From a virus: a stretch of 64,000 nucleotides of DNA. Shown here one piece after another: positions 3,236 through 32,306 of this stretch. The DNA lies in IMG/VR virus record IMGVR_UViG_3300011335_000809, positions 32,001 through 96,000 of that record. One strand, given 5' to 3'. Position numbers and translations under genes: made by a program. Numbering within the stretch: position 1 is the stretch's first letter; each line of letters opens with the position of its first letter. Under the pieces are notes generated by a model, which saw only the letters and a program-made list of their open reading frames with translations, had not been told where the DNA came from and ran no database searches.

Positions 3236-3718
3236 TTACTCAATCTTTATTTTTTTGGTTTCTGGAATTGTAGGTTTGATCTTTGACAATGTAACCTTTA
3301 ACAACCCATTTTCAAATTTTGCAGATGGATTTTTTCGATCAATTTGATCGCCTAATGTAAAACTTCGTTTGAAATTGCTATGTTTCAGTTCTCTACGAAT
3401 ATACTTTCCTGTAAATTCCCTATCGTCAACCTTTTTAATCTTTTGACCACTGATAGTAAGAACATTTTCTTGTACATCAACTGAAACGTCTTCTTTAGAA
3501 AGACCAGGAATTTCCGCTAGAATTTCTACACGGTCATTGTAATCAACAACATCTACACGGGGATAACTTTGTTTTTCAAAAAAACCAACGCCCAGTTCTT
3601 TATTTAATTCTGGGAAATGTGCCGCGAATACTTCATCGAATACACGGTCAAATGGCGTTAAAAACTCATCACGATCAACGTGACGTAATGCAAACGGACT
3701 ATATTTAATTACTGACAT
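3236..3718 (-). CDS. small heat-shock protein (Hsp20/alpha-crystallin)
   Basis: YPRVDVVD, AEIPGLSKEDVSV, FKRSFTL, AKFENGLLKVTL motifs. Confidence 0.95.
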   Translation of the reverse strand: MSVIKYSPFALRHVDRDEFLTPFDRVFDEVFAAHFPELNKELGVGFFEKQSYPRVDVVDYNDRVEILAEIPGLSKEDVSVDVQENVLTISGQKIKKVDDREFTGKYIRRELKHSNFKRSFTLGDQIDRKNPSAKFENGLLKVTLSKIKPTIPETKKIKIE

Positions 3719-3850
3719 ATATTTACCTTTCTTTTAATAATTCTATTGAACTTATTAACCTAATAGCCTCACTCGAGCACTATAGTGAATAACACATCTG
3801 TGTCATTCAAGAATATATATGACATAAATTCAGAAAAATGTCAATATTTT

Positions 3851-6736
3851 TTATCCAGCGGACGAAACTCCGCCTGTTTGACATAAATTAATGTAATTTT
3901 CACTATCTACATTATTATTGTTTCTTCTCAAAAATAAGATATAAAAATTTGCATTTCCTAATATAGGATTGGTTGTTGTAACCGTGTAAGTGCCTGAAAA
4001 TTGACCTGATGCACCTGGTGTACACACATATTCTTGTCCACCCGCTGGATCCAAAATCCAATTGATACTAACTGAATAACCATCTTGTGTTATACTTGTT
4101 GGTAATGTACATCCTGAATTTGGCAAAGCATTAACAACTGCTTTGGCAAAAGTTTTATCAGCTGATGTACCAGTTGTATATGCAATTGTTACCACCGTTC
4201 TAAGTTTTATTTGCGTCCAACTTTCCAACATACTGGGATTGTAACTTACACATCCTAAATTACTTGTTACAGGCGTAACTACAGGAGGTGCTACTGGAGT
4301 AACAACTTCTTTTTTACATTTATTTTTATCTGATAAAAATGCAATTGTAATATTTTCAGATGTTTGGTTATATCCTGGTGGAAGAGTGAATACAGCTTCA
4401 TTTTTTATATAAACATATGTTGGTTGATTTGAATTTGAATAATTTACAATTCCGACTCCTATACTTATTTTTTTAGATTTATATGGTTCAATAGAAATAG
4501 GAGATTGAGGATCAATTGTAACAGGCAATAACAAAGAATTTAATACACTACCATCGTAATTTGTCCAATTTTGATTCAACGTAATTGTCATTGAATCGGG
4601 GTTGTTATTTGTAATTACAAAACTTCCTGTATGTTTTATTTGTGTTAAAAGTGTAGGATCACATATTTGTGGAGATGTAGATGTTCCACAAGTACAATTT
4701 ATAGAATTTATTCCATCCCAAGATCCTATATTTCGTGGCCAATTTGGCGTTTTCAATGCGGTGACAACACAACTACTTTTATCAGATGAAAAATAAAAAT
4801 AAGATTGCTGAATTGAGTTTATATAATAATTCGAATCTGTAGTTGCGGTAAATGGACAAATTAAATGTACACTAGTCGGTTGACTTGGATTATTATAATT
4901 GTTTTTTCCAAATGACACTGATATTTTTTTACTTTCGTTTGGTTGTACTATGATCGGTGAATCAGGATTCATCTCAATAGGAGTAAGTAAAGAATCTATA
5001 GCAGTTCCATTTATTTGATTTTTCCAATTATTTTTATCAAATGTAAGTGTCATTGGTTTAATAGACATGTTGTTTGTTATTATAAAACTACCACTATGTC
5101 TCACTTGAGTTGTAGAAGATGGATTTGATACAATCTGAGCTGAATTTGGATTTGAATTGCAAGATAATTCATCTATTGATATATCTTGCCAAAAACTTGG
5201 ATTGGGCAAATATTGTTTGAGAGGCAAACTTATATTACAAGAATTTTTATCAAAACTAGCTATAATCTCGCAATTTTGATATTGTGGAGAATATCCTAAT
5301 GGCAAAGTCAAATTTACAGAACCTTTTACGGTAAAGATTTTTGGTTGAAGTTCATTTTGATAATTAGATAACCCGAAACCAATGCTAATTTTACGTGTAC
5401 TGTTGGCCAAAATAGAAAACATTCCAGTTGGTGCAAAATCAACTGTACTAATTAACGAATTTAAAGGAGTTCCATCTAAGTTAGTCCAAGTCGGACTTAT
5501 AGTAGCTAACATCTCCGCATTGTTATTATTTGTAATTATAAAACTACCACTGTGTTTTATTTGAGTGGTCGAAGTCGGATTACATACTGGCTGAGTATAA
5601 CCATCACCGCAATCTAAATAACCACATCTTGGTCCTGTAAATGAAATATTGGTTGGGAAGTTACCAACTAATGTTGGTGATGTTGCACACGATGATGCAT
5701 TTGAATCTTGGGTGCCTAAAATGTAAAGTGTAATTTGACCAAATGTGGATGTATTTTCAAACGAATACGCGTATGAAGGATTTGTTCCACCTGAACTAGT
5801 AGCGGTTACCAATCCAGTGTAAAAATACCCAAGTGGGCCATCAGGTGTAGCTGATTTTTGTAAAATCAATCCGTCAAAGGACAGTGTTCTATTGTGTCCC
5901 AAATTGTCTTTATAGGATATAACTGGCAAAAGTTGTTCACTCGATTTATAAGTCGTAATATTTGGATTCTGTAATAAACTATTTAAGTTATTTAATATGT
6001 TAGACAAATCTGTTATCTTTGTATTTGTATAACCATTGGATGTTTTATCACTATTGATTTTTTGAAACAATAAAGAACTTGCTATAGATAAATCTGCAGC
6101 CGACATTGTGTATGTATAGGTGGTATTATCAACAACAGTACTTGTACAAGTGCCTATAAACATACTAGATGTAAATGCATTTGACAAACAATCCTTAGAA
6201 ACCAATTTATACGCTTTTGTATTAACCAAATTATAAAATGATTCAATATTATCACCAGATTTAGCGTAAGAAAACATCTTATTCCACCCAGAATCCACAA
6301 TAGGTGTAGTGATATTTGACTTGGAGTATAGTGTATATTGATAAACTTTGTCTTGTATATTATTGGTCAAAAAGTTATTATTTTGTACTACACTAGGAGA
6401 ATAAATTTTAACAGTAGCGACACCAGTTGAAGCGGCTACACTAAAAGAACTACTTATATAAGAGGCGCCATAAAATTCACTAAACTTTATAGGCCGTCTA
6501 TTGTCTTTATTTATAAAACCAACGCCTATAGCCTTTGTTATATTAATCGTACTTGAATCGTTGTTTGAATTTCCGATTCTATTTTCCAATTGATAATAAC
6601 TTTGTGATATAGAAAAATTATTTGAGCCTGGATTATAAAAGTTGCTTAATAAACTATTGATCGAAAGATTTTCGCTATTATTTGTTTCGCTTTTGAAACT
6701 CAATGGGCCAAACCTGTTTAATATATTGACAGACAT
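3851..6736 (-). CDS. large virion structural/tail-associated protein with three internal repeats
   Basis: 961 aa, S/T/N-rich; three copies of TTQ(I/V)(K/R)H(S/T)GSF(I/V)ITNN...KISI module. Confidence 0.6.
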   Translation of the reverse strand: MSVNILNRFGPLSFKSETNNSENLSINSLLSNFYNPGSNNFSISQSYYQLENRIGNSNNDSSTINITKAIGVGFINKDNRRPIKFSEFYGASYISSSFSVAASTGVATVKIYSPSVVQNNNFLTNNIQDKVYQYTLYSKSNITTPIVDSGWNKMFSYAKSGDNIESFYNLVNTKAYKLVSKDCLSNAFTSSMFIGTCTSTVVDNTTYTYTMSAADLSIASSLLFQKINSDKTSNGYTNTKITDLSNILNNLNSLLQNPNITTYKSSEQLLPVISYKDNLGHNRTLSFDGLILQKSATPDGPLGYFYTGLVTATSSGGTNPSYAYSFENTSTFGQITLYILGTQDSNASSCATSPTLVGNFPTNISFTGPRCGYLDCGDGYTQPVCNPTSTTQIKHSGSFIITNNNNAEMLATISPTWTNLDGTPLNSLISTVDFAPTGMFSILANSTRKISIGFGLSNYQNELQPKIFTVKGSVNLTLPLGYSPQYQNCEIIASFDKNSCNISLPLKQYLPNPSFWQDISIDELSCNSNPNSAQIVSNPSSTTQVRHSGSFIITNNMSIKPMTLTFDKNNWKNQINGTAIDSLLTPIEMNPDSPIIVQPNESKKISVSFGKNNYNNPSQPTSVHLICPFTATTDSNYYINSIQQSYFYFSSDKSSCVVTALKTPNWPRNIGSWDGINSINCTCGTSTSPQICDPTLLTQIKHTGSFVITNNNPDSMTITLNQNWTNYDGSVLNSLLLPVTIDPQSPISIEPYKSKKISIGVGIVNYSNSNQPTYVYIKNEAVFTLPPGYNQTSENITIAFLSDKNKCKKEVVTPVAPPVVTPVTSNLGCVSYNPSMLESWTQIKLRTVVTIAYTTGTSADKTFAKAVVNALPNSGCTLPTSITQDGYSVSINWILDPAGGQEYVCTPGASGQFSGTYTVTTTNPILGNANFYILFLRRNNNNVDSENYINLCQTGGVSSAG

Positions 6737-17424: not shown

Positions 17425-17809
17425 TGGTGGAGATGGCGGGGAGTCGCACCCCGCGTCCATAAAAAATTATTACTGCCAGACTACACGTTTATATATTTTA
17501 AATTGTTTGGGGTAATAATAAAAAATATCTAAAAATATTACCCTTAAGATTTACCATTTTCTCAGCCATTTACGCAAATCAAATATTTGGCCCAGTCCAA
17601 TAATTTACACCCAATACAACTATCAGACTTCATTGTATTGAATGTGCAACAACTTAGGCTGCAAGGGCTACAACGTCATCATAAGAGAAGTCATAGCTAA
17701 CTACGTTATCTTCAGCAGTTAATTTTCAATAGAACTTTTAAAGAGGCCAACTATTATCCTCTACGTGCCTAACAATAGATATTTATCTATGTCGAATCTA
17801 CACATCCCC
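17425..17809 (-). ncRNA. ssrA: tmRNA; tag peptide AEDNVVSYDFSYDDVVALAA* (17654-17716)
   Basis: 5' GGGGATGTGTAGATTCGAC; 3' GCGGGGTGCGACTCCCCGCCATCTCCACCA; G3:U pair; tag ORF ends LAA-stop. Confidence 0.95.
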
Positions 17810-21726: not shown

Positions 21727-21760
21727 AAAAACCCGTCATTCTTTTTAAAAGTGACGGGTT
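21727..21760 (-). terminator. attenuator terminator 1
   Basis: ACCCGTCA...TGACGGGT followed by U-rich tail; 5' arm can alternatively pair with 21776-21787. Confidence 0.85.
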
Positions 21761-21787
21761 GTATATTTTTAGCAAACAACCACTCAC

Positions 21788-21841
21788 TCAACTTCCGGAT
21801 GGGAGTTGACTGGCTTGACTAGGTTGTGAAATTAAATTCAT
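21788..21841 (-). CDS. leader peptide 1, MNLISQPSQASQLPSGS
   Basis: 17-codon ORF after late-promoter-like TATATATT, just upstream of antiterminator/terminator; composition matches tRNA array 1. Confidence 0.75.
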   Translation of the reverse strand: MNLISQPSQASQLPSGS

Positions 21842-21919
21842 ATTCGTACTAATATATAGTGTTTGAAATTATAAATCAACAAAATTATTTAATAATTTTC
21901 AAATAAACTTCATTAAATT

Positions 21920-25375: not shown

Positions 25376-25466
25376 TGGAGCACGATCAAGGTTACGCTCC
25401 TTGCATATGTACTTTCATACAACGATGTTTTGCAGACATCTCAGTTCTCTAGCTCCGTCATCGTGC
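25376..25466 (-). tRNA. tRNA-Cys(GCA) with long variable arm
   Basis: GATGT-CTGCAAA-ACATC, U73, CCA, TGTA-TGAAAG-TACA variable stem. Confidence 0.8.
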
Positions 25467-25496
25467 TTTAAAAATGGAACCTATATAGGCATTAAA

Positions 25497-26300
25497 TCAT
25501 TCAGTATCATTTGTACCAAAAATACGCTTCCAAATTCCTATTCTTTTAGGTTTTACTTCGGATTTTTCTTCTTTAGGTTGATTATCTTTGTCCAACTTAA
25601 TGTGAACAGTTCGATTAGACATCCGCATCAATACCTCTGCACCTTTTGGCCACTCTCCCAATTTGTTCTTAAATTCATATCCATCTTTTTTCAGATTTAC
25701 TCTCAAATTTTGAGTCAAAAGAGCATTTTCTTTCTTCAACTCTTCTATGATCTTTTCATACTCTACTATCTTGTTCTTCAAAAAATCTCGTTCCTTTGTA
25801 AGCAATTCAATCTTAGATACAAGCTCATTTTGATCTTTATCAGTCTTTGCAACTTTAAGTTCATCACTCAAATCTACAATCTCTTTGGTCATACTAACAA
25901 GCGTATTGCGCAACGACTTTAAATCAGATTCAAGTGCAGATTTTTCTTGTGTCAAATCTTTGATCTTAACATCTTTTTCATCAGATGATACTTTCAACTG
26001 TTCAGTAATACTATTTAATTGAGTCATATTAGTATACAATATACTCAACTTATTATCATAACTCTTCAATAATACAGATAACTCCGTATTCTTTTGATTT
26101 AAATTGGTAATCAATAAACTTTGATTTACAACAATCTCTGTCTGGTTAACAACTTTCTTAGTTAACGCTTTATTATCTATATTCAATGAACTAAATAATG
26201 TATATAATCCAAAAGTTATTAATACAATTACAGCAATTATAACATATAATATCTTTTTATTAGTAACCGAAAATGTTTGGGGAGCGTTTGTAGATTCCAT
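25497..26300 (-). CDS. membrane-anchored coiled-coil protein
   Basis: N-terminal TM helix, long heptad repeats. Confidence 0.7.
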   Translation of the reverse strand: MESTNAPQTFSVTNKKILYVIIAVIVLITFGLYTLFSSLNIDNKALTKKVVNQTEIVVNQSLLITNLNQKNTELSVLLKSYDNKLSILYTNMTQLNSITEQLKVSSDEKDVKIKDLTQEKSALESDLKSLRNTLVSMTKEIVDLSDELKVAKTDKDQNELVSKIELLTKERDFLKNKIVEYEKIIEELKKENALLTQNLRVNLKKDGYEFKNKLGEWPKGAEVLMRMSNRTVHIKLDKDNQPKEEKSEVKPKRIGIWKRIFGTNDTE

Positions 26301-26366
26301 AAATTTATTTTATTATATATATAATCCACTGACATTTAAATATTTTTTTAAAATATAATATCAAAG

Positions 26367-26846
26367 TTACCAAGCCCTACATGACCAATATCTCGCTTTA
26401 GTACGTGGACCAGGATTATCACAATTGTGTCTTGCTCTAAAATTTTTTCTACGTGCTGGATTATTCTTTTTTATGGCCATTCTTTTACCTTTAGCTGAAG
26501 ATCCACCAAATCCAAAATTTACCTTAACCACTTTTCCGTTGGGATTTTTAACGTATACTTTAGATTTCTTAACATCACCTTGCATTGGTTTACCAAGGAT
26601 CACTTTACGACCATGATATTCTGCTTCACATAATGGTTGATTATATTCTCGCATGAATTGAACAAATTCTTTTACATCTCGTTCACTTTCAACATCATAT
26701 TCTTCTATATTGTCTTCATCTACAAAACCTTCTTTTTTAACACAGTTTGGTACCATTCTTCCGCCTTTTTCTTTCATACCAATTTGTTTATAAGAGTCCC
26801 AACACGCCTCTTCAATCTCATTTAAAAGTTCTTTTAACTTAATCAT
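26367..26846 (-). CDS. conserved phage protein (ARYWSC family), putative head-packaged
   Basis: MIKLKELLNE start; CWDSYKQIG..VPNCV; RARHNCD...KARYWSCRAW. Confidence 0.75.
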   Translation of the reverse strand: MIKLKELLNEIEEACWDSYKQIGMKEKGGRMVPNCVKKEGFVDEDNIEEYDVESERDVKEFVQFMREYNQPLCEAEYHGRKVILGKPMQGDVKKSKVYVKNPNGKVVKVNFGFGGSSAKGKRMAIKKNNPARRKNFRARHNCDNPGPRTKARYWSCRAW

Positions 26847-26885
26847 ATCTATAAATATACAAATTAAAATAAAACGTTTTAAAAA

Positions 26886-27081
26886 TGGCGATAGAGTTGG
26901 GAATCAAACCCAAACCTCAAGTTTTATTACCTTACTGGAGTTTATCGACGTGACAATCATAAGAATAATACATCTAAAATATAGGTTATTCCATAGTCGT
27001 CGTTTACATTTACCCAAATAAATTTGGATCATCCCAGCTACAGCTAACCTCTGTAACGTGCTTTCATTACACTACTCTATC
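26886..27081 (-). ncRNA. tRNA-framed RNA with about 120-nt insertion in the anticodon arm
   Basis: Perfect acceptor GATAGAG/CTCTATC-GCCA, D arm and T arm. Confidence 0.7.
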
Positions 27082-27087
27082 ATAAAA

Positions 27088-27164
27088 TGGCGCACCCGGA
27101 GGGACTCTAACCCCCAACCTTTCCGGTAGAAACGGATGGCTCTATACAATTGAGCTACGAGTGC
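27088..27164 (-). tRNA. tRNA-Arg(TCT)
   Basis: Loop TTTCTAC, CCA. Confidence 0.92.
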
Positions 27165-27241
27165 GTTAAAATGGTTAGTAACTGTTCTCACCAGTGATCA
27201 CTGAGTAAAAGGAATTGAACCCAACAATTACTAACAAAAAA

Positions 27242-27319
27242 TGGTTGTCCCGATTGGATTTGAACCAACGACCTTTGTGTTATCAACACACTGCTCTAAA
27301 CCAACTGAGCTACGGGACA
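27242..27319 (-). tRNA. tRNA-Ile(GAT)
   Basis: Loop TTGATAA, CCA. Confidence 0.95.
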
Positions 27320-27336
27320 ATTGAAAAATAATAATT

Positions 27337-28221
27337 TTGGCGATATTAAACATTCTCGTTCATATTTATAATTGTATGAAGAATATAACACCCACAGATA
27401 AAATTGTCAACTTAAAAAGTAGAGATCCAATTGAACTTGAATGTTACGAATGTAAATCAACTTATCAACACGCAAAACATCGTTATTTATGTTATAAACT
27501 TAAAGGAAAATTATCAGGATGTTTTTGCACACAAAAGTGTGCTATGACATACAAAAGTAAATTAAAAAATATAAATACTAACTGTGAATATTGTAAAAAA
27601 GATATTACTAAAAGTTTGAATCAATATAAAAAATCTAAATTGCATTTTTGCTCAACTTCTTGTTCCGCAACACATTGGAATAAAATTCACCATCCTATTA
27701 GGATAACAAAATCAAAAAGAACGGTAAAACTACCTATATTATTAACTTGTACAAATTGTTTAAATCAACATTATAGAAAATATTATAAATCAAGTAAAAG
27801 TGGTACCAATTTTTGTACTAGATCTTGTCAATCAATTTATGCAAATAAGACTTGGAATAAGTCTTCTAGGTTTGGAATAAATAAAAGTCGTTGTGAAACT
27901 ATATTAAAAAATATTATTTTAAATGAATTTCCAAATTTACAAATTATTGAAAATGATAGAACTACAATTAAAGGCGGATTAGAAATAGATTTACACATAC
28001 CAAGCAAAAATGTTGCAATTGAATTAAATGGTCCCTGTCATTATATTCCTATATTTGGTACAAAAGAACTAGAAAAAACACAAAATAAAGATTTATTAAA
28101 AATTGAATATTGTCAAAATAATAACATTAAACTTTTCGTAGTTAATGTGATGGGATTAAAAAATCAAATACAAACATTAACTGATGTATTTAATACTACA
28201 CTAAAATCACATTTAGTGTGA
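27337..28221 (+). CDS. Zn-finger endonuclease of the very-short-patch/DUF559-like PD-(D/E)xK type; start probably at 27376
   Basis: FCSxxC repeats; LEIDLHIP..AIELNGPCHY...DLLK; antisense insertion in tRNA array. Confidence 0.75.
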   Translation: MAILNILVHIYNCMKNITPTDKIVNLKSRDPIELECYECKSTYQHAKHRYLCYKLKGKLSGCFCTQKCAMTYKSKLKNINTNCEYCKKDITKSLNQYKKSKLHFCSTSCSATHWNKIHHPIRITKSKRTVKLPILLTCTNCLNQHYRKYYKSSKSGTNFCTRSCQSIYANKTWNKSSRFGINKSRCETILKNIILNEFPNLQIIENDRTTIKGGLEIDLHIPSKNVAIELNGPCHYIPIFGTKELEKTQNKDLLKIEYCQNNNIKLFVVNVMGLKNQIQTLTDVFNTTLKSHLV

Positions 28222-28224
28222 AAG

Positions 28225-28296
28225 CCCTCCATACGAGACTCGCACTCGTTACTACATCGTGACAGGATGTTATGATAACTCATTCAACAATGGAAG
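28225..28296 (-). tRNA. tRNA-Asp(GTC), no encoded CCA
   Basis: ACATC-CTGTCAC-GATGT, G73. Confidence 0.85.
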
Positions 28297-28460
28297 AAAA
28301 ATAAATTGGTGCTGTGCTCTCCACGCCGTCTCTGTGTTTTACCGAATGTACCGGTCGGCAGTCACTTATGGGGTCAGTTACCCATTACTAAATTGGCAGT
28401 TAGTTTAATGTGTCTTTACAGAAAAGATTTAACTACTAACTGTTCAGTGTTAGCTGAAGA

Positions 28461-28538
28461 TGGTGGATGCGGTGGGATTTGAACCCACAACCTTTCGGGT
28501 AAGAGCCGAATACTCTGATCCAGTTGAGTTACACATCC
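28461..28538 (-). tRNA. tRNA-Lys(CTT)
   Basis: TTCGG-CTCTTAC-CCGAA, CCA. Confidence 0.93.
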
Positions 28539-28765
28539 ATAAAAAATTGTATCTAATATTGTCAACGAACTATAATCATCTTACCACACTTTATTCTTCC
28601 GTCAACAACTTTCTTAAAAAATATTCTGAACAAATCAACTTTATTTGAGTGGTAGCTGCACCCACTCTCCGTATTCCCAAATTAACCGTCTGGCCACATT
28701 CAAGGGCTTTCACTTGGATAGTTGATACCGGAGTATAGTGTTGTCTTCACCTAGTTCAGAAAAAA

Positions 28766-28883
28766 TGGTGGGCTACGACTGGACTTTCACCAGTAAACGA
28801 TACAACCTTTCACTCAGGAACATACCCTCCTTCGGTTATATCAGCGGAGTCATCGCCGTGTCTTATATTTCCACCACACGCCC
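28766..28883 (-). ncRNA. tRNA-framed RNA with expanded anticodon arm
   Basis: GGGC.../GCCC-ACCA ends, D stem GTG/CAC, T arm ACTGG-TGAAAGT-CCAGT. Confidence 0.6.
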
Positions 28884-29154
28884 ATAAAAAAATCTTAATG
28901 TCGCTCACGTACTGCGACTCTCACGGCCTCATAATGCGATGTGCGGGTGGCCGTTGTGCATTCAAACAAATCTACCTCGCCTACTTTTTACGATATTGAA
29001 CTGATTTAGCGACTGTTGTACCTGTTCGGCCCTTCCACCGACTCACGTTTTTTATGGTTGCCCATCGCATTGTTATACAACAGTTTTATTTTCAGCGTTT
29101 ACGTATATCCTTAGTTATCTTGATATGTTTCGTATATACACCAATTAAGAAAAA

Positions 29155-29230
29155 TGGTCCCAGTTGTTGGTTCCGCCCCAACCTCTATTCGTCTTCAGCG
29201 AATCGCTTTCACTAGGTTAGCTTAACTGGG
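29155..29230 (-). tRNA. tRNA-Phe(GAA)
   Basis: ATTCG-CTGAAGA-CGAAT, CCA. Confidence 0.88.
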
Positions 29231-29330
29231 ATTATAAATTAAATTGACAAGTCAAAGGAATCGAACCTTTTCGGCACAGCATCACTGCACCTTTACCACG
29301 CCCTGCGCACTAGCACCTGTCAAAATCACG

Positions 29331-29477
29331 ATGTATGGTTGGATTCGAACCAACGGCTACTTTTACAACCATTAACATATAATTAATGGAATTTTTATTT
29401 ATTACAACCTAACATAAGATTTTTACGGGCTTACCCCATAGTTAGGTACTCTGCTCTGCCAACTGAGCTACATACAA
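29331..29477 (-). ncRNA. tRNA-framed RNA with about 75-nt insertion
   Basis: Canonical D arm GCTCAGTTGGCAGAGC and T arm GTTGG-TTCGAAT-CCAAC; TGTATG/CATACA acceptor. Confidence 0.65.
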
Positions 29478-29486
29478 TGTTTAAAA

Positions 29487-29572
29487 TGGTGGGGTATGTA
29501 GGTAATGCGCCTACCGAGCCTTTCAGCGCCAGATTTACAGTCTGGACCATCTCTTTAATGGTATAATACCCC
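29487..29572 (-). tRNA. tRNA-Tyr(GTA)
   Basis: CCAGA-CTGTAAA-TCTGG, variable arm, CCA. Confidence 0.92.
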
Positions 29573-29703
29573 GAAAAATTTAACGTCATATGTTTGTTTC
29601 ACCATATGACGGTGACTGAGGTTCTTCTTTCACCGTTACGTTCTAGTTATCCTCACCTATGCACAGGTAGAACGGCATTAGTCACTTCAGAAGACTTATA
29701 AAA

Positions 29704-29779
29704 TGGCTCCAAGAGAGGGCAACGATCCCCCAACCTTTCGGGTAACAACCGAATGCTCTACCAATTGAGCTATCTTGGA
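29704..29779 (-). tRNA. tRNA-Asn(GTT)
   Basis: TTCGG-TTGTTAC-CCGAA, CCA. Confidence 0.93.
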
Positions 29780-29894
29780 ATTAAAAATTAAAAATGTTTA
29801 CTGGATTTCAACGAACGTTCCATCTACTAATCATAACCTCGTCAGATTATAACATTCAATGTCTATCAGTGTCAATACATTACTTACTACTTCA

Positions 29895-29968
29895 ACTATT
29901 GATTCAGATTCGAACTGAATTACTCCCGCTTATTCGTGCGGTTGTTTTACCAATTAAACTACGTTCGT
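29895..29968 (-). pseudogene. degenerate tRNA (D and T arms intact, acceptor unpaired)
   Basis: GTTTAATTGGTAAAAC and TTCAG-TTCGAAT-CTGAA; 8-nt anticodon loop. Confidence 0.55.
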
Positions 29969-29995
29969 TGCCTTCACCTAATGTATTTGAAAAAA

Positions 29996-30070
29996 TGGCA
30001 AAGTGGGTGGGTAACGCTCCCACATAAAGCAGTTTTGGAGACTGCTGCATTTCTTGTCTGCCACCACCTT
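29996..30070 (-). tRNA. tRNA-Trp(CCA)
   Basis: GCAGT-CTCCAAA-ACTGC, G73, CCA. Confidence 0.9.
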
Positions 30071-30129
30071 GTTAAAATGGTATCTCCACCGTTAATATTT
30101 CAGTGGCCGTACCTGTTACTCTCTGTAAA

Positions 30130-31200
30130 TTACGAAATTAATGTTGTTGATTCAGATTTTTTCTTTGCTTCTCTAACAGAGACATAATTGATGGTATTTT
30201 CAATTGAAATACCCACTTGTTCCGAAAGACGCAATCCACGATAATATTTTGTAGGAATTCCAACATACTCACTCATAGCTATTTCTTTACGTGTATCCTT
30301 GATAAATTTCATATTTTGAATTGGATACAAATTGTTATATCCAATTGAAGTTAGAATTCCATTACCAAATAAGTTCATATGATAATCCGTAATTACATTG
30401 TAATATTTAACTTCTTCCATCACTACACTCTTTTTTATCAAGATTATTTCTTCACCTTTTACATTAAATGTAATAGTGCCAATCGGTGTATCACTTGTCA
30501 TCGGATAAGTAAATTTACCAGCCTGTTTATTAAAAATACGATGTTGTACAATTGTCTTTAAATAAGAACCATCACTAAATTCCAATAGATTGTATTTGGT
30601 TGTTACTTCTGGCTGCTTTATATACAAAGGTTTTGCCGTATCAAACTTCGCTTCGTCAAAATTCCACACAATAATATCGTCGATATAATCAATGTCTTCA
30701 ATTGCTTTGGTTGTACCATCTGACAATGATACCAAAGTGCCTTCTGCTAAACACACAGAAACATATATCGATATATCTGTACCATATGCTGTTCCATTAA
30801 CATTTGTTGCAAATGCTCTAATATAGACTAGACCATTTGTTGGGCTTATGTTCTGATTGCTACACGAAAATGATCCAATTGAAGCCGTAGGATCCACATA
30901 AGCGGAATCTGTTGGAAGTGTTGGGTTTGGAGAATTGCTTGCTACGAATCCTCTAGATAATATCGGTGAATTTCCATCAGATACTACTGTTCCTACGGCG
31001 CTAAAGTCGTAAAAAGCGCCGCCACTAGCACTATCTGTGGTCACGACTGGCAGTAGCGCCTGTAACGCCGATTCTTCTTGTTGTGCACCACCTGCAATTT
31101 GTTCTTCATATCCTCGCATCATTTTGGAATAATTTTGCATTATTTCGTGTAAGGGTAACTTTTCTTTGTTCTGTTGATAATAAGTCTGCCAATGTATCAT
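30130..31200 (-). CDS. FN3-like plus Hint-domain protein
   Basis: YIRAFATNVNGTAYG; CLAEGTLVSLSDG...YYNVITDYHMNLFGNGILTS. Confidence 0.7.
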   Translation of the reverse strand: MIHWQTYYQQNKEKLPLHEIMQNYSKMMRGYEEQIAGGAQQEESALQALLPVVTTDSASGGAFYDFSAVGTVVSDGNSPILSRGFVASNSPNPTLPTDSAYVDPTASIGSFSCSNQNISPTNGLVYIRAFATNVNGTAYGTDISIYVSVCLAEGTLVSLSDGTTKAIEDIDYIDDIIVWNFDEAKFDTAKPLYIKQPEVTTKYNLLEFSDGSYLKTIVQHRIFNKQAGKFTYPMTSDTPIGTITFNVKGEEIILIKKSVVMEEVKYYNVITDYHMNLFGNGILTSIGYNNLYPIQNMKFIKDTRKEIAMSEYVGIPTKYYRGLRLSEQVGISIENTINYVSVREAKKKSESTTLIS

Positions 31201-31230
31201 ACATATATATATCCACCAACAATACTAAAA

Positions 31231-31305
31231 TGGTAGCCTATGCCGGTGCTGCCCCGGCTACTCTTGGATGAAAGCCAAGTGACTTAGCTGGTTGTCGAAT
31301 AGGCC
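31231..31305 (-). tRNA. tRNA-Glu(TTC)
   Basis: CTTGG-CTTTCAT-CCAAG, CCA. Confidence 0.9.
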
Positions 31306-31312
31306 ATTAAAT

Positions 31313-31390
31313 TGGTGCTTCAGTGAGGATTCGAACCCCAAACTCAATGTCCGTAGCATTGCGTGATATATCCATTTTCACCACTGAAGC
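31313..31390 (-). tRNA. tRNA-Arg(ACG)
   Basis: CAATG-CTACGGA-CATTG, CCA. Confidence 0.93.
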
Positions 31391-31396
31391 ATAAAT

Positions 31397-31472
31397 TGGG
31401 GTGATATACGAGTGCTGCCCTCGTTCCGTGAGTTTCACAAACTCAAATGCTAACTGTTACACCAATATCACC
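31397..31472 (-). tRNA. tRNA-His(GTG)
   Basis: TGAGT-TTGTGAA-ACTCA, G-1:C73, CCA. Confidence 0.92.
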
Positions 31473-31484
31473 ATTACTATAAAT

Positions 31485-31560
31485 TGGAGCCGAAGACAGG
31501 ACTTGAACCTGCAACCTGAACTTTACAAAAGTCCTGCTCTGCCAATTGAGCTACTTCGGC
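31485..31560 (-). tRNA. tRNA-Thr(TGT)
   Basis: Loop TTTGTAA, CCA. Confidence 0.95.
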
Positions 31561-31612
31561 GGTCTAAATTTTCTTTGCTTATTTACTTATAACAATAACC
31601 TCAGTTATGTTA

Positions 31613-31741
31613 TTATCGCCCTATAGGTTCTGTATTTCAGCATAACACCTACGGACCAATCAATTGATTTTCCCAGTTCTCACCTTATCATCGGTCTTTC
31701 CGACTCACTGGCGGAGGCTCAACAGATGGAGTTTCAAGCCC
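31613..31741 (-). ncRNA. conserved tRNA-array 5' leader RNA motif, copy 2
   Basis: Homologous to 21578-21672, with an inserted hairpin. Confidence 0.7.
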
Positions 31742-31758
31742 TTCCTTTATCTTCTATC

Positions 31759-31876: not shown

Positions 31877-31886
31877 CCACAAAAAT

Positions 31887-31917
31887 AAAAAAACCGTCAC
31901 TTTTTAGTGTGACGGTT
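31887..31917 (-). terminator. attenuator terminator 2
   Basis: AACCGTCAC-loop-GTGACGGTT plus U tract; 5' arm can alternatively pair with 31953-31966. Confidence 0.85.
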
Positions 31918-31948
31918 GATATTGTTTTGAAGTTACCTAAGTTTGAGT

Positions 31949-32026
31949 CTATACAATATCACCGCCAACACATTCACAATTCGTAAATGTATCCCAACGT
32001 TTAATATGTGTATACTGTACTCTCAT
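31949..32026 (-). CDS. leader peptide 2, MRVQYTHIKRWDTFTNCECVGGDIV
   Basis: 25-codon ORF after TATATATT; contains all 12 amino acids of tRNA array 2; last codons form the antiterminator strand. Confidence 0.8.
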   Translation of the reverse strand: MRVQYTHIKRWDTFTNCECVGGDIV

Positions 32027-32306
32027 TATATTAATATATATTATCAAATTTACTAAACGTCAAGAATTTTTATTGCTAAAATTCTTTATAACTTTATACA
32101 AACTATAAAAACAATATGTTGTTAATACTGTCAAAGCACTAACTCCTAGACTCATTCCTATAGTCACTACCCACCCAATTATATTACGTTGTTCTTCACT
32201 CAATGTAAACATATCTCAGAATATATACTCGATCATTAATCATTAAACTTAATATATTAAATTAAAATTATAACCACTTATTACATCAATTCTATCTATA
32301 TTAGTT

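Follow-up and report, generated by a model that had tools for sequence, protein, structure and literature searches.

A putative leader-peptide attenuator reading tRNA supply ahead of a phage tRNA array

Why should a short ORF and an intrinsic terminator stand ahead of an array of phage tRNA genes, and what might they sense? The role and expression of phage tRNA genes have been debated for decades, with proposals including codon supplementation and the replacement of tRNAs lost to host defence or shut-off. The locus analyzed here lies in the 115,569-base IMG/VR record IMGVR_UViG_3300011335_000809, of which bases 32001–96000 form the window (64,000 nucleotides) whose numbering is used throughout. 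The record is ~34% complete as estimated by CheckV and therefore represents only part of a large, probably giant, phage. It has a G+C content of 27–41%, few recognizable proteins (tail fibres, helicase and methyltransferases), and two tRNA arrays and a tmRNA gene, all on the minus strand. Metagenomes with matching sequence come from river, lake and sediment, and blastn of the region against phages in GenBank recovers tRNA-Thr similarity only and no relatives. Here we propose that array 2 is preceded by a ribosome-mediated, trp-style transcription attenuator that reads tRNA supply, an interpretation that we consider likely but that no experiment has yet addressed.

Array 2 (25376–31560, minus strand) is interrupted by ORFs and tRNA-like elements, and was delineated using ARAGORN, Rfam, direct reading and a scanner of our own, which looks for an acceptor stem, a T arm, an anticodon arm and an encoded CCA. 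The order of its genes is Thr, His, Arg-ACG, Glu, Trp, Asn, Tyr, Phe, Lys-CTT, Asp, Ile, Arg-TCT and Cys. Just 9–10 of these are detected by ARAGORN and Rfam. Five minus-strand tRNAs were identified by reading and with our scanner, namely tRNA-His GTG (31471–31397), tRNA-Glu TTC (31305–31231), tRNA-Tyr GTA (29572–29487), tRNA-Phe GAA (29230–29155) and tRNA-Cys GCA (25466–25376). They combine an encoded CCA with non-standard T-loops (GGCAGCA in tRNA-His and tRNA-Glu, with CGCATTA, GGCGGAA and AGCGTAA also present among the five), and most are missed by default ARAGORN and at the Rfam gathering score. BLAST of the relatives' tRNAs against the window likewise missed Tyr, Glu, His and Phe. The amino acids served by array 1 are V, P, L, S, G, Q and A, none of which belongs to the array-2 set. 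A full-length tmRNA gene (17425–17809, minus strand; Rfam score of 106 bits) lies just past array 1.

The leader ORF ahead of array 2 (31949–32026, minus strand; ATG at 32026, TAG at 31949) comprises 25 codons followed by TAG, and is conserved in 25 peptide variants. Codons 2–19 contain all 12 amino acids served by array 2, each represented in the ORF by one to three codons, and S, P, L and A are absent over its full length. The two Arg codons, AGA and CGT, match the array-2 anticodons TCT and ACG. The Lys codon is AAA, which the sole array-2 Lys tRNA (CTT) is unable to read, and codons 3–4 (V, Q) specify array-1 amino acids. A preliminary description of this DNA had given the identical translation and a downstream array of 13 tRNAs, had placed all of the array-2 amino acids within the first 19 codons, and had assigned both Arg codons to the Arg tRNAs present. 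All of this holds, the count of 13 tRNAs for 12 amino acids being reached after the additional tRNAs were found, and the reservations that it attached concerning Lys (AAA versus tRNA CTT) and V/Q (array-1 amino acids) are correct.

The roster of the leader ORF is unlikely to arise by chance under each of the null models applied. Under a proteome-composition null (amino-acid usage taken from the 66 long ORFs of the record), the probability of finding all 12 amino acids is P = 1.5e-5 for residues 2–19 and P = 3e-4 for residues 2–25 (24 residues). Random codons at the genome base composition contain all 12 in 24 codons with P = 1e-3, and contain all 12 with no S, P, L or A with P = 4e-6, while shuffling of the ORF's own letters gives P = 2.4e-3. 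The preliminary description had named the last two comparisons (the joint chance, here under a nucleotide-composition null, and concordance against shuffled ORFs) as tests of the roster, which withstands both. Among the 792 ATG ORFs of 18–40 codons in all six frames of the 115-kb record, the leader ORF is the only one to reach 12 array-2 amino acids, and one other reaches 11.

The intrinsic terminator (31880–31917, minus strand) begins ~30 nt beyond the leader ORF and consists of a 9-bp G+C-rich stem (31917–31892) with an 8-nt loop, followed by a T-run (−13.8 kcal/mol, z −5.4). An alternative helix is formed by codons 21–25 of the ORF. The 5′ strand of this antiterminator (31953–31966, GGCGG followed by TGATATTGT) ends 1 nt before the stop codon, and its 3′ strand (31911–31925, ACAATATCA followed by A and CCGTC) shares its last 7 nt with the beginning of the terminator 5′ arm. 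In the resulting helix (31966–31953/31925–31911), 14 bp are interrupted by a single bulged A (−15.3 kcal/mol, z −4.1), and since the 7 nt are common to both helices, the two are mutually exclusive. This is the pairing of the final codons that had been put forward earlier, with about 14 bp and an overlap with the terminator stem, which here amounts to 7 nt. The accompanying suggestion that the C-terminal residues G-G-D-I-V serve RNA structure is borne out by the relatives described below, which have four C-terminal versions whose nucleotides still pair with the terminator 5′ arm.

Relatives of the locus were collected from viral and metagenome collections using an exact 24-mer and two related motifs, giving about 100–110 loci. 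The 24-mer belongs to a conserved two-hairpin leader RNA without an Rfam family (31600–31745, minus strand), which lies between the promoter P2 (see below) and the first tRNA of array 2. It is shared by a second copy of this RNA (21680–21585, minus strand), which likewise follows a sigma-70-like promoter and precedes the first tRNA of array 1, and by ~90 metagenome loci. Two further candidates (L056 and L066) were rejected as unrelated chance matches to a 20-mer. At least 36 different nucleotide sequences of the array-2-type leader are represented, and 30 of these, encoding 25 distinct peptides, were aligned. The cassette is always found directly ahead of the array, regardless of the upstream gene.

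Conservation in the 30 leaders supports both helices. Terminator cells are paired in 98% of cases, with compensatory changes at 3 pairs, and the 9-bp core of the antiterminator is ~98% paired, with wobble-type changes and two double changes. The antiterminator is present in 30 of 30 leaders (13–15 bp, −9.4 to −20.4 kcal/mol), alongside terminators of −9.6 to −16.1 kcal/mol. In three loci (L021, L097 and L114), a three-way change affects all of the competing strands at once (G to A in the terminator 5′ arm, C to T in the terminator 3′ arm, and C to T in the antiterminator strand). Both antiterminator strands are conserved and the sequence between them varies freely. The last five or six leader codons differ between lineages in the amino acids that they specify, and their bases remain paired.

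Additional structure is present within the leader. A hairpin spanning codons 12–20 (31967–31993, minus strand; −9.8 kcal/mol, z −4.7) has 90% of its cells paired in the 30 leaders, with double changes at 3 pairs, and is a possible pause or anti-antiterminator element. The z-score of the full leader structure is −4.5. In the full-length minimum-energy fold, codons 3–7 pair with the antiterminator strand, resembling regions 1:2 of the trp leader, but covariation for this pairing is not above that of shuffles. Nucleotide conservation is highest in codons 5–8, which could also form pairs with the antiterminator strand. RNA pairing thus also constrains codons 12–19, and possibly codons 5–8, so not every codon is a free choice. 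No Rfam family covers the leader, and none of the amino-acid leaders (His, Thr, Leu or Trp) gives a match at the gathering score or at E ≤1. A weak Rfam match to STnc240 (E 0.38) was rejected since it comprises the terminator only, and Rfam scans of the region gave no T-box match.

The reading frame is open in 30 of 30 leaders, and most length differences between them are whole codons. In some relatives (L030, L044 and L097/L114), a one-base difference moves the stop onto the TGA of TGATATTGT, and in 30 of 30 leaders the stop codon starts 0–10 nt from the start of the antiterminator core strand. In the 23 ungapped relatives, synonymous changes occur at 5 of codons 2–18, and 16 of 17 replacement states over the same codons stay inside the array-2 set (P ~6e-4 to 2e-3). 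Translation of the ORF is inferred from the preserved frame, the synonymous changes and the start context, which offer indirect support only.

The composition of the leader follows that of the array in those relatives where the array differs. Locus L114, of which L097 is a fragment, has a hybrid cassette with a different array of 13 tRNAs (Thr, Ala, Ile, Gly, Pro, Tyr, Ser, Gln, Met, Glu, His, Cys and Asp, found with standard ARAGORN). Its 22-codon leader contains all 13 of these amino acids, and R, K, W and F are absent from leader and array alike (P = 4e-5); the leader includes N and L as extras beyond the array. The leader of locus L032 lacks Arg and Glu codons, and no Arg or Glu tRNA is found in the 6.9 kb downstream, Arg-ACG being third in all other such arrays. 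A paralogous cassette ahead of array 1 (21727–21858, minus strand) consists of a 17-codon ORF with many S, Q, P, A, L and G residues, followed by an antiterminator and a terminator. Of the residues in this leader, 14/16 are array-1 amino acids, and a divergent array-1 leader (L019) has another sequence with the same S, V, Q, A, G, P and L make-up. Clearly independent classes of roster–array composition number only three.

The correspondence is not complete in every respect. The Lys codon among the 30 leaders (AAG in 15, AAA in 10) is unrelated to the Lys anticodon present. Matching at the level of isoacceptors was rejected because it fails for Lys, and a match is therefore claimed only at the level of amino acids, plus the two Arg families. 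In the L008 group, the Glu codon is kept though no Glu tRNA is detected in those arrays. In six relatives (L016, L017, L062, L091, L092 and L113), the array-1 leader ORF carries ~45 additional, ordinary codons at its 5′ end and retains the last ~16 codons, the antiterminator and the terminator, an arrangement compatible with the proposed mechanism only if distant codons do not count. Locus L050 (oriented on the minus strand, ~3500–4080) retains the promoter, the leader RNA and tRNA-Thr, and lacks the ORF and terminator. The array of L050 is reduced to one nearby tRNA.

The position at which a ribosome would affect the choice between the two helices was modelled by folding every transcript in a truncated, co-transcriptional form that ends at the terminator loop, with 28 nt masked to represent the ribosome. 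With the A site at codons 2–17 the antiterminator is the best fold, and from codon 18 onwards it is blocked. Full-length equilibrium folding with the same type of mask was discarded as uninformative, the terminator winning in most states once its 3′ arm exists. Array-2 amino acids account for 366/398 residues (92%) within the sensing range, and for 325/329 (98.8%) when counted from codon 5. Beyond this range they account for 76/163 (47%), the background share being 58%. These residue counts are not phylogenetically independent. The break in the roster at this position is what the mechanism predicts. Exceptions to the roster (V, Q, S and M) are located at codons 2–4, which are exempt from the rule. 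When no ribosome is included, the antiterminator is the favoured fold of the truncated RNA in 25 of 30 leaders, and the default state in the absence of translation would therefore, in this folding model, probably be read-through.

A promoter-like element on the minus strand (32033–32063) consists of TTGACG (32063–32058), a 17-nt spacer and TATATATT (32040–32033), with the leader ATG 6 nt further on. It was not listed by the promoter scan, but the arrangement of TTGAYG and TATATATT is kept in relatives. From this layout, transcription is predicted to start 1–3 nt from the leader ATG, which would make the mRNA nearly leaderless. The leader ATG lacks a Shine-Dalgarno sequence, as do most genes of this phage (present in 7/85). 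The motif TATATAT[TA] occurs 2–15 nt before the ATG of ~10 of its long genes, including tail-fibre genes, and it was also observed that many gene starts lie 2–9 nt after TATTTATA- or TATATATT-like motifs (e.g. 32219–32212 of the window, minus strand). The scarcity of Shine-Dalgarno sequences, together with the many gene starts following such motifs, suggests a phage-specific promoter giving leaderless or near-leaderless mRNAs. Since a motif of the TATATAT[TA] type also precedes structural genes, the transcription that enters the leader from upstream may come from a late promoter.

Downstream of the terminator are two sigma-70-like promoters on the minus strand, both with extended −10 elements. 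P1 (31849–31876; TTGACG, 16 nt, TG-TAAAGT) and P2 (31759–31786; TTGACA, 16 nt, TG-TAGACT) were both identified by the promoter scan and are conserved in relatives. Every relative read has at least one sigma-70-like promoter between the terminator and the tRNAs. Given the position of P1 and P2 after the terminator, the attenuator could gate only transcription arriving from the upstream promoter, and these two promoters could express array 2 regardless of it. Metatranscriptome contigs from four runs cover parts of the region but, being assembled sequences, cannot show starts, ends or levels. A contig from a close relative (run X17, record 16) corresponding to 31934–31587 spans the terminator, P1, P2 and the leader RNA, and could represent either read-through RNA or DNA carry-over.

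In the proposed mechanism, transcripts from the TTGACG/TATATATT promoter would start at or near the leader ATG. Rapid translation of the 25 codons would bring the terminating ribosome over GGCGG-TGATATTGT, and with this strand covered, the terminator would form and transcription would end ahead of the tRNAs. If a matching charged tRNA were scarce, the ribosome would wait at any of codons ~2–17, leaving GGCGG-TGATATTGT free to pair with ACAATATCA-A-CCGTC; this would take up 7 nt of the terminator 5′ arm and allow the polymerase to enter the array. With 1–3 codons in the leader for each of the 12 array amino acids, any single shortage should raise the output of the whole of array 2, as in an OR gate, and negative feedback would result if the tRNAs being sensed are those of the phage itself. 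Computation supports the ORF with its roster, the conserved and covarying pair of exclusive helices, and the point along the leader beyond which the roster no longer holds, whereas ORF translation, stalling, the transcription start, the biological trigger and the read-through response to scarce charged tRNA are inferred. A stall signal made of one codon per amino acid is weaker than that given by the runs in the his, leu and thr leaders. The attenuator first suggested in the preliminary description gains support from the frame being kept open, the structural C-terminus, the roster following the array in L114 and L032, and its positional limit.

An unlikely, though not negligible, alternative is that the attenuator is real but responds to the overall capacity for translation (ribosome supply, host shut-off or translation inhibitors) or to amino-acid starvation, rather than to the level of the tRNAs encoded downstream. 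This would accommodate the Lys AAA codon that tRNA-Lys(CTT) cannot read and the independence of codon choice from the Lys anticodon across loci, as well as the weak species-specific stalling to be expected from single codons per amino acid. The preference of the ribosome-free truncated RNA for the antiterminator in 25 of 30 leaders also fits, so that any loss of translation would open the gate. However, a sensor of general capacity leaves unexplained why the roster equals the array set, shifts with the array in L114 and L032 and complements the array-1 leader, and why each of the two Arg anticodons has its codon family represented in the leader.

Two other explanations dispense with attenuation by a translating ribosome, and we regard both as improbable. 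The ORF could be a gene in its own right, with a protein product of 25 residues and its own terminator; agreement with the tRNA set would then be coincidental, and the terminator would merely insulate the tRNA promoters from upstream transcription. The start context usual for this phage, the strong terminator and the new promoters immediately downstream are all in keeping with such a gene, but it is membership of the set that is conserved, individual amino acids being only poorly so, and the C-terminal residues vary freely while their nucleotides remain paired. Nor would an independent protein account for a roster that tracks the array in L114 and L032, or have reason to obey a positional rule. 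Alternatively, the leader could be a non-coding RNA or structured 5′ element (e.g. a processing or decoy RNA), with the open frame as a by-product of conserved structure; this possibility, also given very little weight, draws on the largely structured leader (z −4.5), the covarying internal hairpin, the absence of a Shine-Dalgarno sequence, and the location of the most conserved nucleotides in codons 5–8, which may pair with the antiterminator strand. It is opposed by a frame that stays open in 30/30 distinct leaders despite indels, by synonymous third-position changes at 5 codons, and by a stop codon that is always on the antiterminator strand, and RNA structure predicts no amino-acid roster matching tRNAs.

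The attenuator reading has its closest counterparts in logic, by analogy, in the multivalent thr and ilvGMEDA leaders and in pheST. Enterobacterial amino-acid operons with leader peptides include trp, his, leu and phe, and the multivalent thr (Thr and Ile) and ilvGMEDA (Ile, Leu and Val). These leaders resemble the phage cassette in having a short ORF with regulatory codons, an intrinsic terminator, and an antiterminator that shares the terminator 5′ arm, with the stop codon placed such that a finishing ribosome blocks the antiterminator, and in that a single leader may read more than one amino acid. In contrast, amino-acid operon leaders control biosynthetic enzymes and contain runs of 1–3 amino acids, whereas the phage cassette would control tRNA genes and has a roster of 12–13 amino acids with 1–3 codons each. 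The phage cassette also differs in being nearly leaderless and without a Shine-Dalgarno sequence, in having constitutive-looking promoters after the terminator, in the lack of clear support for a region 1:2 hairpin, and in showing no sequence similarity to these leaders. To our knowledge, no known leader reads nearly as many inputs as 12–13.

In E. coli, the phenylalanyl-tRNA synthetase genes pheST are under attenuation by the pheM leader. As would be the case for the phage array, leader attenuation there acts on genes of the translation apparatus, with feedback on the decoding capacity for the leader codons; however, pheM reads one amino acid and controls protein genes, whereas the phage leader lists a whole array and the products are tRNAs. 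T-box riboswitches recognize uncharged tRNA by direct contact with a specifier codon and the T-box sequence, and need no translation. They likewise use transcription antitermination to report the state of specific tRNAs and control genes of the translation apparatus, but in the phage cassette the reading would be done by a translating ribosome.

The nearest published inducible tRNA array is the trn operon of Anabaena sp. PCC 7120, a mobile (horizontally transferred) array of extra tRNAs that is induced when translation is impaired (PMC8421152, PMC10272220). It is controlled by the repressor TrcR through tandem direct repeats that overlie the −10 box and the transcription start, and neither attenuation nor a leader peptide is mentioned for it (PMC8421152, PMC10272220). 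Control of the Anabaena array thus relies on a repressor at promoter repeats, in contrast to the leader ORF and alternative RNA helices of the phage. No description of tRNA genes controlled by leader-peptide attenuation was recovered in full-text literature searches.

If the attenuator reading is true, the phage measures the decoding of exactly the codons that its array serves and adjusts its tRNA output, giving functional evidence on phage tRNAs that is written in the genome. It would extend leader-peptide attenuation to RNA genes as targets, and provide a sensor with 12–13 inputs. The cassette is compact (~150 nt) and directly testable, and the covariation of roster and array across relatives offers a ready set of predictions.

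A more tentative proposal, which we consider possible but doubtful, is that the phage carries two separate sensors of the tRNA pool (one to several in relatives), with each leader listing the tRNAs of the array behind it, such that loss of one tRNA species would switch on exactly the array able to replace it. Such a loss might be caused by e.g. host anticodon nucleases. The known targets of anticodon nucleases are Lys, Tyr, His, Asn, Asp, Arg and Glu tRNAs, and these fall in the array-2 set. If the two-sensor proposal is true, the tRNA supply of the phage is an inducible counter-defence and not a constitutive codon supplement.

Several further elements were observed in the arrays. The tRNA-like elements within array 2 (29477–29330, 28883–28766 and 27081–26886, minus strand) have acceptor and T arms and CCA ends, with large insertions in place of the anticodon arm, and two of them are called as intron-containing tRNAs by the intron mode of ARAGORN. 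A 294-residue Cys-rich ORF on the opposite strand (27337–28221, plus strand), with weak matches to the zinc-finger FCS family, lies between tRNA-Asp and tRNA-Ile, and is possibly a mobile or homing-endonuclease-like insertion in array 2. In the relative L028, a tRNA with the anticodon CTA (3788–3863, minus strand) is of the amber-reading suppressor type, and is labelled 'Pyl' by ARAGORN.
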